Below are positions 44,821 through 49,169 of a DNA stretch of 64,000 bases, piece after piece. Origin of the DNA: Escherichia phage PinkRuby; sequence record PP925839.1. One strand, given 5' to 3'. Below the pieces are notes generated by a model. The model was not told the DNA's origin and ran no database searches. It saw only the letters and a program-made list of their open reading frames with translations. The position numbers and the translations under genes were made by a program. Numbering within the stretch: the stretch's first letter is position 1; each line of letters opens with the position of its first letter.

Positions 44821-45210
44821 TTAATCCAAAATATTATTAGGCATTGGTTGAACACTCGCAAGTTCTTTAAAGAACTCAGTAGAGTCAGGTAATTTAACCA
44901 TTTCCGGAGCATGCTTACTAAATTTATGTTTGCAATGACGGCATTTATATTCAAGTTCCGGTTTACGCCAGTTAATCAATTGAACTTGTTCAGTACCGCA
45001 TTCAGGACAATTAGGAACGTTTTTAGAAGCCCTTTCGCGACGTTCAACCATAACCATAATAGCATCCCAGGCTGGAGGTTTAAAATCTAAATCATCACAA
45101 CCATGAATCTTTCCGCGCATTTCCAGATCGTCTTCTTCACCAGCCATAATAATTTTAATTAGACTGGAATTACTTGAAGCTGCAATATCTTCTAATAGAC
45201 GCTTTTTCAT
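44821..45210 (-). CDS. zinc-ribbon hypothetical protein
   Basis: 129 aa; CPEC...CRHC. Confidence 0.45.
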
Positions 45211-46136
45211 TTCAATACCTCAATAGCATTACGTAAACCATTTGCTTTTGCATTAAGAGCTTTTAACAATTTAGCGTGTTCGGCAATCTGAGCTTCAACT
45301 TCAACTAGTCGAGATTTGAGGTATTCACGTTCTTCGCTCAAGTTATCAATCTTTTCTACTTTAGGCTCTTTTACAACTGTCTTATATGTATTAGGGTTCT
45401 TCAGTTTAATTAAAATGCGTGAACTGTATAACATTGAACCATTATCTTCGGTTTCGTCATACATTTCTACTACGTCCATGATTTTTAACATCATGCGGAG
45501 TTTATAAGATAACGAACGAATAGTTTTGTTGTGCTTATTAATTTCTCTAGAGTTCATGGTGCCGAGATTACGTGAGTAATAATAAGGAACCTGGATATTA
45601 ATTAATACTGATGAACCACCTGGCTTGTGTGTTACTTCATCAGCAATAACCCAATCCTTAACATGAACTGTATTTGTACGGTCATCGCCCGCGGTAAATA
45701 GTTTGCGAGCATGCTTAAAAAGCATATTCACTTGGTCATTGAATTGACAAGCAAATTTATCAGCAAATTTAGTTTCAGGAATGGTAGATAACCAATCAGC
45801 CAAATGGGTCTTTTTAACATCGTTAACAATAGTAAATTCAACCAAATCAGTTATAGATGTCTCAGATTTAATAAAGCTCGGCTTCATAAAGTTTTTAATG
45901 TTATCGCGAGCTACAGTAGAAGATAACATACGAGAACGTTTAAACCATTGAAGCAAATTGCCCAACGAATGAGAATAAGCGTTTTGAGTATCTTTACAGA
46001 TATGATTTTCCTGGCCAACATATTGAAGGAAATCACGAAGAATATTATTGATTACTGCTCTGTGTCCGATCTGATAATTACGGTGTTTAGTAATAAGACT
46101 GTCAAAATAATCAATATAATGTTTACGAGTTTTCAT
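45207..46136 (-). CDS. paralog-family protein A (C-terminal coiled coil)
   Basis: 309 aa; MKTR... N-terminus; heptad-like C-terminus. Confidence 0.55.
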   Translation of the reverse strand: MKTRKHYIDYFDSLITKHRNYQIGHRAVINNILRDFLQYVGQENHICKDTQNAYSHSLGNLLQWFKRSRMLSSTVARDNIKNFMKPSFIKSETSITDLVEFTIVNDVKKTHLADWLSTIPETKFADKFACQFNDQVNMLFKHARKLFTAGDDRTNTVHVKDWVIADEVTHKPGGSSVLINIQVPYYYSRNLGTMNSREINKHNKTIRSLSYKLRMMLKIMDVVEMYDETEDNGSMLYSSRILIKLKNPNTYKTVVKEPKVEKIDNLSEEREYLKSRLVEVEAQIAEHAKLLKALNAKANGLRNAIEVLK

Positions 46137-46188
46137 ATTCTTCTCACTTGGTTAATGGTTTATACTCCGAGCCATCCTTGGCTTTAAA

Positions 46189-47190
46189 TTACTTAATTAA
46201 CTGTAAAGCTTGTTCAAGACGATCAAGACGATTAACAGATTCTTCCCAAATCCTTTTAGCCTGCTCATATTCTTTCTGCGCTTTATTAGAAATTTCTAGA
46301 ACTTCTTTATAAGCTTTTTCTAGTGCAATAACTTCTGGACGAATTTCTACCGGTTCAGGTGAATCGTCAAGACATTCCATTAGTTCTTCAAGGGTAGTTT
46401 CTTCTTTAGGAGTATTCACAATTTCATCACATTTTTGTTGGTAAATTTCTTTATCAGTCGATGAGCACGCACACTTTACTTCACGAAGGCTAATTATAAT
46501 TTTATATCCTTCCCAACCACACATATTTTTGAAAGGATATGTATGAATACTTTTTACAGTTTCCATACAGCCCAAAACCGCCTCTAATTGATAAGTTATA
46601 GTGCTAGCAATTGAGAAAAATTTATTAATATTCTTTTGGTTAGCGTTTGGTGTAAAAAATCCATAATTCACAAAAATAGCTACTTTATTTTCATCAAGCT
46701 CATATTCTTTTACGATAATCATATCAGAAGCCAAAGGATGAATTTGACGATAATCGCCATAACATAATTTAGAAGCTGATTTTAGAATTTGTCCTTTGAA
46801 AAGTCTGAAATTACTAATCCAACGACGAGTAAAAATATTCTCAGGGTATTCTTTATTATTAAGATGATAAGAATTAACATCACCGAACCAATTATATCCT
46901 ACTACATCTTTAGTTCGTTTAATTTCTTTCCCAAATTTACTAAGAATATCTCTGTTGACTAAGTATGAAAGAAGACGAGACCCTTTAAAGGTTTTCTTAA
47001 TGTCATCTTTATCTGTACGACTAGAAATTTCACGAACTTCATGAATAAATTTGCCGGAAGAAACAATACTTGCATCAGTATTATTGAGCCATTGATTGAT
47101 AATAGAAATCACACTATTCTGACTAGACATAGGTTTAACTTTATCATCAATAACGCTGTTGAACGATTTAATATATTCGTTGCGAGTCAT
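46189..47190 (-). CDS. paralog-family protein B
   Basis: track ORF to 47220; ATG at 47190 (MTRNEYIKSF...); RRWISNFRLFKGQILKSASKL similar to protein C. Confidence 0.55.
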   Translation of the reverse strand: MTRNEYIKSFNSVIDDKVKPMSSQNSVISIINQWLNNTDASIVSSGKFIHEVREISSRTDKDDIKKTFKGSRLLSYLVNRDILSKFGKEIKRTKDVVGYNWFGDVNSYHLNNKEYPENIFTRRWISNFRLFKGQILKSASKLCYGDYRQIHPLASDMIIVKEYELDENKVAIFVNYGFFTPNANQKNINKFFSIASTITYQLEAVLGCMETVKSIHTYPFKNMCGWEGYKIIISLREVKCACSSTDKEIYQQKCDEIVNTPKEETTLEELMECLDDSPEPVEIRPEVIALEKAYKEVLEISNKAQKEYEQAKRIWEESVNRLDRLEQALQLIK

Positions 47191-47218
47191 ATTAATCTCC
47201 TCAGTAGAAAGTAAGAAC

Positions 47219-47248
47219 ATTATACCACATCCTTGTGGCGAAGTAAAC
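47219..47248 (-). promoter_or_regulatory. T4-type early promoter, near-identical to the one at 2429-2458
   Basis: ttataccacatccttgtggcgaagtaaacta (2 mismatches vs 2430-2460). Confidence 0.55.
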
Positions 47249-48252
47249 TAGTTTAGTGCATTTAGTGCGTTGTTCAATTTAGAACGTTGCTTCGTGAGAT
47301 TTTTTACTTTTTCTTGAGCTTTTTCTAGCATCTTTTCAGCTTCTAACACTTCATTAGTTGCTTTAACGAGTTCATCATCTACTGCCTTGATAGACTTCTC
47401 AATCGCATCCGCGTGCCATTTTTCAACAGGTTTAAGACTCGGATTTTCAACAGGAAGAAAATTCACTTTATTGAATTTCCATGCATCATTATTACCTGAA
47501 CTATACATCCAAAATTTAGGATCGTTTGATGAGTAATTAGTTTGGGGTTCAGGTTTTTTCTCTTGTGTAACTTCGTCCTTTCTCAAAAAATCATATTTAA
47601 ATGAAACGATCATATCAAGTTCATATGTTGTCGTATCTAATTTAAATCGTTCGAAATGCTGCGAAATCTTAGACTGAACAGCAGAAACAACATCCATATA
47701 CTTAAATGCTTCTGTCAGCTGTGATTTAAGACATTCACAAATTGAAAGAGAATTTTTAGTACTAGGTTTAAAGCTAATTCGTGCAGTTCTATTATTTTCT
47801 TTTAATGGTCTTACTTCCATCTGAAGAGTATAACCATCAAATTTCAGATTCTTTAAGTTAATATCAGAGCCCTTTAATCGACTAGCAGTAGACAAAATTT
47901 GCTTTAATTGTTTACGAAATAGAGCAATAAATCTCCATTCAATACGATAATGATTTGGATTAAAAAATCCTGTTGATAAATCAACCTTACTCTGACCAAC
48001 GCCTTGAACAAACAGAGGATTTTTATAATCAATAGTTTTACAGAAATCGGTGAGCTGCTCACGAGCAGTCATTTGTGTAATATATCCCGCTTTACTAAAA
48101 TGACGTAACCATTCACTGCTATTCATATACTTAAAGTGAATATCACGATTAACTTTATCAGGGTCTAAATTATTTTGGCACAAAAATGTCATAACATTAC
48201 GGGTATAGCTGGCATTACGAACCATATCTTCAATTTGAGAACGAGTTTTCAT
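47248..48252 (-). CDS. paralog-family protein C
   Basis: 334 aa; MKTR... N-terminus; C-terminal coiled coil. Confidence 0.55.
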   Translation of the reverse strand: MKTRSQIEDMVRNASYTRNVMTFLCQNNLDPDKVNRDIHFKYMNSSEWLRHFSKAGYITQMTAREQLTDFCKTIDYKNPLFVQGVGQSKVDLSTGFFNPNHYRIEWRFIALFRKQLKQILSTASRLKGSDINLKNLKFDGYTLQMEVRPLKENNRTARISFKPSTKNSLSICECLKSQLTEAFKYMDVVSAVQSKISQHFERFKLDTTTYELDMIVSFKYDFLRKDEVTQEKKPEPQTNYSSNDPKFWMYSSGNNDAWKFNKVNFLPVENPSLKPVEKWHADAIEKSIKAVDDELVKATNEVLEAEKMLEKAQEKVKNLTKQRSKLNNALNALN

Positions 48253-48260
48253 AGTGTTCC

Positions 48261-49169
48261 TTAAGATTTAAGTAAATCAACAATTTTAATTAATTTTTCA
48301 CGCTCAGATTTAGCTTTACTACTCAATCCAGATAGTCTGAAAATTTCATCGTCATACTGTTGAATAGAAATATTCAGCTCTTCAATTTGCTTATTAAAAT
48401 AATCAATTTGCTCAGAATGTTTTTCATTACTGCGAACTGGTACAGGTTTTGTAGGCAATTTAGTTAAACTGGATTCATCCGGGCGATAAATTAAAATACA
48501 ACTTGAACCAATCGGGCATTTAGCACCAGACACATATTCTAATGTTCCGGCTTCTTTTAAAACTTCAAAAGCTAAACAGAGATGATGCCCCATATTAACA
48601 TAATCTGTAGAGCGAGCTCTGACGTAATAATCATCGCCGCGAATACTAAATTTAAAGCATTTAAGGTCTTCTGTATTATTGGTCTTAAAAATCATTTGTT
48701 TATCTAGACCTTTAGCTAATCGAGCGCCTAATGCTAATAATCGTCGTTGATTTTCCCACAAATCTGCGATCATTTGGTCAAATGATAATTTCGGCATTAG
48801 TCGACCGTAAAGATCATAGCCTTTATTATAATTGCGAAGAATTTCACTTGCATTAATACGAGACAATGCTCCAATTTTATTAAGGGCTTTCATAATGCGA
48901 TTAGATAAACCCATTCCAGACCCGTTTGTTCGCTGTAAATGTTTTTCTAATCCAAATCCAATATCAACTTTAAACTTATCTAAAATTTCTGCATGAACAT
49001 CTCTGTCAATAACATTCAAATCCAAAGTTGGGTTAAATCTATGAAAAAATTTATCTGGCTCTCCACGACGAAGTACAGTCCATTCATTCAATTTTTTATT
49101 AACTAAAGATTTAATTACTGCATTGACACTATTAATTACTACTGACATATTTTCCTCACTCAATTTCAA
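48261..49169 (-). CDS. paralog-family protein D
   Basis: 302 aa; C-terminal coiled coil; weaker similarity. Confidence 0.5.
   Translation of the reverse strand: MKLSEENMSVVINSVNAVIKSLVNKKLNEWTVLRRGEPDKFFHRFNPTLDLNVIDRDVHAEILDKFKVDIGFGLEKHLQRTNGSGMGLSNRIMKALNKIGALSRINASEILRNYNKGYDLYGRLMPKLSFDQMIADLWENQRRLLALGARLAKGLDKQMIFKTNNTEDLKCFKFSIRGDDYYVRARSTDYVNMGHHLCLAFEVLKEAGTLEYVSGAKCPIGSSCILIYRPDESSLTKLPTKPVPVRSNEKHSEQIDYFNKQIEELNISIQQYDDEIFRLSGLSSKAKSEREKLIKIVDLLKS

Follow-up and report, generated by a model that had tools for sequence, protein, structure and literature searches.

Four consecutive genes at 45207-49169 of a 64,000-nucleotide stretch of Escherichia phage PinkRuby (PP925839.1; hereafter the window) are orthologous to T4 nrdC.3, nrdC.4, nrdC.5 and nrdC.6, and are supported as tandem paralogues derived from one ancestral gene. 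We hold, with confidence a little better than even, that they constitute an expanded family of early-expressed, oligomeric defence inhibitors that grew from a single copy to three or four in the T-even phages of E. coli. The array is 98.7% identical to that of Shigella phage ESh33 and 90-95% identical to those of most Tequatroviruses, so the window was taken to be the left 64 kb of a T4-like Tequatrovirus genome other than T4 itself. Gene names were assigned by alignment to annotated T4 and JS98 records. All four open reading frames (ORFs) lie in a row on the minus strand, at the coordinates first proposed from inspection of the DNA. The lengths proposed there (309, 343, 334 and 302 amino acids) were retained for the first and third genes and revised to 333 and 295 amino acids for the second and fourth.

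Among the four proteins, pairwise BLASTP joined a single pair, nrdC.3 with nrdC.4 (E 1.4e-8; 25% identical across 226 amino acids, outside the C-terminal coil); no other pair was significant. Profiles built with orthologues gathered from Dhaka-, Gapriver- and Mosigvirus reached further. Profile-profile alignment with hhalign joined nrdC.3 to nrdC.4 (97.7% probability, E 1.6e-12) and both of these to nrdC.5 (82.6% probability, E 1e-5), the latter in the globular part. Hidden Markov models (HMMs) of single families without the coil gave almost no cross-family match, the sole one being from nrdC.3/nrdC.4 to a Jiaodavirus protein (E 0.0075), and the families were therefore pooled. The pooled profile comprised nrdC.3, nrdC.4, nrdC.5 and the bridge proteins described below, with the last 60 residues cut and zero NrdC.6 sequences, and it was searched against 793 ORFs from the window and the fetched loci. 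It found every NrdC.6 of Tequatro-, Dhaka- and Gaprivervirus (E 1.6e-7 to 2e-4) in collinear alignments, and zero unrelated ORFs up to E 10. The window NrdC.6 scored 16.9 bits, compared with a maximum of 9.6 over 1000 shuffles, and no shuffle or reversal control gave comparable scores.

The bridge proteins are encoded by relatives with a single copy. The Kanagawavirus IME523 protein matches NrdC.6 by BLASTP (E 1.3e-6, 186 amino acids, spanning the conserved block 2, the beta domain and the coil), and the Winklervirus Virsaitis27 protein aligns by hhalign with NrdC.5 (95.9%) and with the Jiaodavirus FRZ284 protein (87.5%). In Foldseek searches of BFVD, the predicted models of NrdC.5 and NrdC.6 share four matches at probability 1.00, all uncharacterised Straboviridae proteins of about 310-375 amino acids, from Erwinia phage Cronus, Klebsiella phage Mineola, Pectobacterium phage PM2 and Acinetobacter phage fHyAci03. 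Another gene of the locus, nrdC.8 (49619-50146, 175 amino acids), likewise ends in a heptad-like helix, ...RKFEERLKTVLA. It was ruled out as a fifth, short member of the family (hhalign below 1%), from which it follows that a coiled-coil tail by itself yields no match. The original prediction of a paralogous family with a common coiled coil and divergent central regions is thus borne out for all four genes by profiles, bridge proteins and models, with BLASTP connecting only one pair.

Current databases assign the array to three families, treated as unrelated and of unknown function, which the evidence given here unites. NrdC.3 and NrdC.4 belong to phrog_1435, NrdC.5 to phrog_2351 and NrdC.6 to phrog_2257, each window protein as a full-length member; Pfam adds PF26897 and PF26899. 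The PF26899 assignment is a precomputed one on NrdC.6 orthologues that are 94-98% identical to the window protein. The window NrdC.5 belongs to the Pfam family of T4 NrdC.5 (PF23882), matched over its full length with 390 bits against a gathering threshold of 30 bits. The same model finds no match in nrdC.3, nrdC.4 or nrdC.6 even at E up to 1, and these three are remote homologues outside PF23882, paralogues of NrdC.5 that share its domain order and its C-terminal coil. We propose that NrdC.3-6 and the single-copy proteins of Kanagawa-, Jiaoda-, Winkler- and Lazarusvirus form one superfamily. The array genes are T4 nrdC.x ORFs, related to one another, and one of them has a known function; the original prediction had named unrelated nrdC.x ORFs with distinct known functions as the finding that would count against it.

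All four proteins are best explained by a common layout that runs from an N-terminal helical region through two conserved helical blocks and a small beta-beta-alpha-beta-beta domain to a linker, variable and largely disordered, and a C-terminal heptad helix of about 50 residues. The predicted models of NrdC.5 (pLDDT 72.5) and NrdC.6 (pLDDT 77.7) have the same order of elements, with N-terminal helices, a helix pair (block 2), the beta-beta-alpha-beta-beta unit, a disordered linker and a terminal helix. In each of the four proteins the last 49 residues follow one unbroken heptad register, with 79-93% hydrophobic residues at a and d positions (shuffle p <= 0.0035), and the register is the same in all four relative to a conserved ...L..A(L/I)..LK C-terminus. 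In the AlphaFold2 models, NrdC.5 ends in a 58-residue helix (residues 276-333) and NrdC.6 in two helices (residues 242-271 and 277-294). The predicted C-terminal coiled coil was thus recovered in every member, as was the conserved internal block, block 2. A further shared block precedes block 2 by about 40-60 residues (NrdC.3 residues 64-83, NrdC.4 67-86, NrdC.5 51-70 and NrdC.6 88-107). The proposed MKTR/MTRNEY-type N-terminus applies to three of the proteins: nrdC.3, nrdC.4 and nrdC.5 share M(K)TR..(Y)I, which nrdC.6 lacks.

The start of nrdC.4 is set by its promoter. The 343-amino-acid ORF reaches 47220 and is unlikely to be the product; because the ATG of this longer form falls within the -10 hexamer of an early promoter, the product was taken to be the 333-amino-acid protein that begins MTRNEY at 47190, a start preceded by a GAGGAG Shine-Dalgarno sequence and used in the T4 annotation. 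For nrdC.6 the most likely start is the ATG at 49148 rather than the TTG at 49169, because the orthologues begin at this ATG. The nrdC.4 promoter fits exactly the T4 early pattern of a GTTTAC -35 element, a 15-nucleotide gap and an extended -10 TGnTATAAT, a pattern with 12 sites in the window against 0.06 expected. Its sequence, TTTACTTCGCCACAAGGATGTGGTATAATG (TAGTTTACTTCGCCACAAGGATGTGGTATAAT), has 27 of 30 positions in common with the promoter that directly precedes rIIA.1, spacer included (47218-47247 aligned with 2428-2457, both on the minus strand), and none of 100 shuffles gave a match, in agreement with the near-identity that had been claimed for this pair. The spacer common to both promoters, CCACAAGGATGTGG, is a 5-bp inverted repeat around AGGA; its sharing may stem from a promoter cassette copied recently or may mark a regulatory site. 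Judging from position only, an early-promoter-like site upstream of nrdC.8 (50175-50204) probably drives a transcript spanning nrdC.8, nrdC.7, nrdC.6 and nrdC.5.

A survey of presence and absence with the superfamily profile gave copy numbers that differ by genus: four per Tequatrovirus locus, three in Dhaka-, Gapriver- and Mosigvirus, and one in Kanagawavirus (IME523, 335 amino acids), Jiaodavirus (FRZ284, 324) and Winklervirus (Virsaitis27, 346). Lazarusvirus also has one (Konradin, 343 amino acids), with weaker support (E 5e-5). Roughly 600 Tequatrovirus genomes contain the array. The profile found zero members in the Slopekvirus and Pseudotevenvirus loci examined or elsewhere in the window. 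Members always sit in synteny, upstream of nrdC; LYE-01 and Mosigvirus lack nrdC.4, and Dhaka- and Gaprivervirus lack nrdC.3. An exhaustive HMMER search with the NrdC.5 profile gave 14 matches among 1.84 billion cluster representatives, none of them cross-family, and one (P0188) was discarded as a spurious repeat protein. IMG/VR scans and word-based protein searches added little diversity. The NrdC.3-6 families are confined to T-even-like phages, and the wider family with its single-copy members to the Straboviridae. Directly upstream of the single-copy member, Kanagawa-, Jiaoda- and Winklervirus encode a protein of 256-262 amino acids (L023:13555-14325, L024:14144-14932 and L025:13930-14703) with no counterpart in the window array; its identity across the three genera, 66-77%, is far above the conservation of its family neighbour.

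Within Tequatrovirus, the ratio of non-synonymous to synonymous substitution rates (dN/dS) was estimated for the window against T4 and four other genomes. Values were 0.11-0.31 for nrdC.3, 0.19-0.25 for nrdC.4, 0.15-0.22 for nrdC.5 and 0.06-0.14 for nrdC.6, and 0-0.08 for the neighbours nrdC, nrdC.10 and nrdC.11. All ratios of the array are below 1, and those of three genes exceed the values of the neighbours; selection is read as purifying, and in these three as relaxed or episodic. Variable sites concentrate in the first 60 residues, the centre and the linker, and block 2 and the coiled coil are most conserved. nrdC.3 has two deep Tequatrovirus alleles with 60% amino-acid identity and dS >1 (window 45207-46136 vs L001:6087-7013). 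The window carries the non-T4 allele: its NrdC.3 is 59-60% identical to that of T4 and 94-99% identical to those of other Tequatroviruses. Between the two alleles the first ~90 and last ~60 nucleotides are nearly identical (93-97% at the gene ends), whereas identity is 43-70% over nucleotides 150-870, from which we conclude that a central cassette of ~750 nucleotides has been exchanged. The overall pattern looks like cassette replacement together with gene gain and loss, rather than pervasive positive selection. The rapid diversification originally proposed is accordingly not seen in gene-wide dN/dS, and finds its counterpart in the raised ratios of three genes, the nrdC.3 cassette alleles and the loss of copies.

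Several genomes carry structural variants of the array, some of which may be sequencing errors. These include an in-frame nrdC.5/nrdC.3 hybrid without nrdC.4 (P0057), the loss of nrdC.4 from LYE-01 (L040), an nrdC.4 broken into two ORFs in one genome and a frameshifted nrdC.5 in Ec_YwIITB1 (loci L012:7950-8982 and L041:3745-4806), and an 83-amino-acid internal tandem duplication in NrdC.6 of Sf25 (P0059). A protein that joins a different N-terminus to the NrdC.5 coil (P0181) was considered as a domain swap and dropped: it comes from an 803-nucleotide contig, its arrangement occurs in no phage genome, and its apparent relatives are one intact and one frameshifted nrdC.5.

Function is anchored in nrdC.5. 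A T4 deletion mutant fails on cells with Dsr1, a SIR2-domain defence of ECOR17, and nrdC.5 alone, supplied on a plasmid, restores plating (Srikant et al., eLife 2022, PMC9391042). The sensor domain of Dsr1, common to Avs7, detects the phage major capsid protein (PMC13581612). By orthology to T4 NrdC.5 (90-92% amino-acid identity), the window NrdC.5 very probably acts against Dsr1. Because their paralogue counteracts Dsr1, nrdC.3, nrdC.4 and nrdC.6 are good candidates for immune evasion; the idea of a specificity family, put forward in the original prediction, holds for nrdC.5 and is plausible for the rest. The wider setting also has the features of an anti-defence locus, namely early promoters, copy and allele variation, T4 orthologues that are all four non-essential in laboratory E. 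coli (HIDEN-SEQ), and neighbours recently shown to act against defences (gp49.2 against OLD in T6, nrdC.1 against Septu). Pfam, NCBIfam, PADLOC and PDB-sequence searches found no enzymatic or known domain in the array proteins besides their own Pfam families. This result, the narrowness of the NrdC.5 family and the dN/dS values raised above those of the neighbours were counted in favour of the defence-inhibitor reading. Residues 30-86 of NrdC.3 (45879-46049) gave a sub-threshold match to the N-terminal SAM-like core-binding domain of XerD/phage integrases (NCBIfam E 0.0013, Pfam E 0.087). This and the other sub-threshold matches in Pfam, NCBIfam and PADLOC (PHL, DUF3905, PgrA, BrxC) were taken as noise or coil matches.

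We suggest that all four genes would be transcribed early from T4-type early promoters, and that the C-terminal coiled coil may assemble their products into oligomers, as paralogy and context indicate. The variable N-terminal and central part could then bind a host immune sensor and block it ahead of the late phage proteins. NrdC.5 would block the SIR2 NADase Dsr1, whose sensor detects the major capsid protein, and NrdC.3, NrdC.4 and NrdC.6 might neutralise other defence proteins or sensor variants, with specificity shifting through cassette replacement and the gain and loss of copies. A more specific version is a modular sensor-blocker toolkit, in which duplication of a single ancestral Tevenvirinae gene in the coliphage lineages led to copies, and nrdC.3 alleles, that each neutralise a different receptor (for example Dsr1- or Avs7-type capsid sensors), the coil oligomerises and the central cassette sets the target. 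We offer this version tentatively and consider it possible rather than probable. If it is true, a swap of the cassette would re-target the inhibitor.

Several observations weigh against a family of oligomeric defence inhibitors. Functional evidence is limited to nrdC.5, and the literature searched contained no paper on the mechanism of NrdC.5, nor on nrdC.3, nrdC.4 or nrdC.6. HIDEN-SEQ reports no differential fitness for the four genes in one comparison (q = 1). Oligomerisation is deduced from heptad periodicity. NrdC.6, with its low dN/dS and 94-100% identity within Tequatrovirus, is conserved to a degree that is uncommon in arms-race genes. The basic charge of three of the proteins (pI 9.2-9.4) is also compatible with nucleic-acid binding, and since the four are basic or neutral a DNA-mimic mechanism was dropped. 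These points bear on the main rival reading, in which the genes are true paralogues of which nrdC.5 alone is anti-defence, the others having another role early in infection, for instance in host takeover through binding of nucleic acids or host proteins, or in one hetero-oligomeric complex joined through their similar coils. We rate this as rather unlikely and keep it in play because the proteins are basic and NrdC.6 is strongly conserved. It can also draw on the weak integrase-like matches in NrdC.3, on the conservation of the coiled coils and on the retention of at least three copies in every E. coli T-even genus examined. Against it, plasmid-borne nrdC.5 suffices by itself against Dsr1, nrdC.4 and nrdC.3 have been lost independently in the lineages named above, and all fold and domain matches are weak and generic; the coil sequences are paralogue-specific, which argues against free mixing of the paralogues.

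The place of NrdC.6 is a further point against a four-member family. Direct hhalign comparison with any of the other three gives no significant result (P ~0.06-0.12), so that the direct profile link is weak and membership comes from pooled profiles, bridge proteins and fold matches. It is improbable, in our estimate, that NrdC.6 is a non-homologous neighbour of three paralogues that resembles them through a convergent coil tail and similar size. Such a history would fit the failure of a coil-less NrdC.6 profile to pick up any other family, and the separate standing of NrdC.6 in Pfam and PHROGs. It would also fit the Mosigvirus NrdC.6-like protein, which is absent from the pooled-profile matches: it scores 4.0 bits, a value reached by 9 of 1000 of its own shuffles, and was placed with NrdC.6 because it directly resembles the window protein (E 2e-34, 33% identity). 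It does not account for the selective and collinear recovery of the NrdC.6 proteins of three genera by a profile devoid of NrdC.6 and coil, for the Kanagawavirus bridge, for the Foldseek matches shared with NrdC.5, or for the same secondary-structure order with both conserved blocks. That the similarity of all four is a compositional artefact of AT-rich genes with coil tails, with no family behind it, seems very improbable. Most BLASTP pairs are indeed non-significant and some cross-family HMM matches vanish once the coil is cut, but the nrdC.3/nrdC.4 match lies outside the coil, that to nrdC.5 lies in the globular part, the shuffled and reversed controls stay low and the similar tail of nrdC.8 attracts no match. 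We thus retain the descent of all four genes from one ancestor and, at the strength given at the outset, their role as defence inhibitors.

The coordinates of the array, its promoters and its flanking genes are collected in the table. The gp49.2 slot (43596-43916) is filled in two Tequatrovirus contigs by an unrelated gene (25% identity), and the identity of nrdC.2 (44821-45210) ranges from 66 to 97%; both fit a hyperplastic accessory region. Directly 3' of nrdC.11, a strong GC-rich hairpin at 51937-51956 (AGGGAGCC-TTCG-GGCTCCCT) has a T-run behind it on the minus strand; it is probably an intrinsic terminator that precedes the nrdC.10 transcription unit. In hundreds of T-even records the product name 'thioredoxin' has spread over the ORFs nrdC.1 to nrdC.11 (window 44577-52971), a mislabelling that likely stems from the locus names. 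The glutaredoxin/thioredoxin of the locus is nrdC only, and the array proteins have no such domain.

Table. Features of the nrdC.3-nrdC.6 array and comparison features in the window
Feature	Position	Strand	Basis or remark
nrdC.3 orthologue, 309 aa, non-T4 allele	45207-46136	minus	ORF; phrog_1435 E 8e-116
nrdC.4 orthologue, 333 aa from MTRNEY	46189-47190	minus	phrog_1435 E 3e-165; hhalign to nrdC.3 family
nrdC.5 orthologue, 334 aa, Pfam DUF7235	47248-48252	minus	PF23882 E 1e-116
nrdC.6 orthologue, 295 aa from MSVVIN, most divergent paralogue	48261-49148	minus	orthologues carry PF26899
Shared block 2, NrdC.3 aa 123-153	45678-45770	minus	helix pair with G-D-x-R at end
Shared block 2, NrdC.4 aa 120-148	46747-46833	minus	RRWISNFRLFKGQILKSASKL, given in the original prediction
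Shared block 2, NrdC.5 aa 102-132	47857-47949	minus	RIEWRFIALFRKQLKQILSTASRL, given in the original prediction
Shared block 2, NrdC.6 aa 122-150	48699-48785	minus	NQRRLLALGARLAKGLDK
C-terminal heptad helix, NrdC.3 aa 261-309	45210-45356	minus	heptad analysis
C-terminal heptad helix, NrdC.4 aa 285-333	46192-46338	minus	heptad analysis
C-terminal heptad helix, NrdC.5 aa 286-334	47251-47397	minus	heptad analysis and AlphaFold2
C-terminal heptad helix, NrdC.6 aa 247-295	48264-48410	minus	heptad analysis and AlphaFold2
Early promoter of nrdC.4, T4-type	47219-47248	minus	GTTTAC, 15 nt, TGGTATAAT
Comparison early promoter directly upstream of rIIA.1	2428-2458	minus	27/30 identical to nrdC.4 promoter
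Early-promoter-like site upstream of nrdC.8	50175-50204	minus	pattern match
rIIA	12-2189	minus	start of window
rIIA.1	2200-2403	minus	near window start
nrdC	44312-44575		one flank of array; nrdC.7 to nrdC.11 form the other flank

Most genes of the nrdC-mobD region of T4, the best-studied phage, have no known function, and the link to nrdC.5 singles out three proteins, so far hypothetical, as specific candidates to be put through anti-defence screens. The four paralogues, the two nrdC.3 alleles and the single-copy ancestors provide a natural set of chimeras for mapping specificity. The array would also exemplify how an anti-defence gene expands by tandem duplication in step with host range, with three to four copies in E. 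coli phages and one in their relatives, and its description corrects a widespread mis-annotation of nrdC.x genes as thioredoxins.

A working analogy for NrdC.5 is DSAD1, an inhibitor of the SIR2 defence DSR2, which occupies the sensor domain of this NADase and stops its activation by a structural phage protein (PMC10973363, PMC10981675). The two cases differ in that DSR2 senses the tail tube protein and Dsr1 the major capsid protein, and in that contact between NrdC.5 and Dsr1 is putative. In its organisation the array resembles the T-even internal proteins IPI, IPII and IPIII, which also form a variable accessory locus with one conserved module, divergent bodies and members directed against different host defences: IPI acts against GmrSD and IPIII against an unknown system of ECOR17 (PMC9391042). 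The shared module of the internal proteins is an N-terminal capsid-targeting sequence, and they are injected with the DNA, whereas that of the array is a C-terminal coiled coil, in proteins made early in the host. Finally, gp49.2 (anti-OLD), nrdC.1 (anti-Septu) and pin (a Lon inhibitor) lie in the same early, non-essential and hyperplastic region, from gene 49 to mobD; these proteins are small and unrelated in sequence to those of the array.

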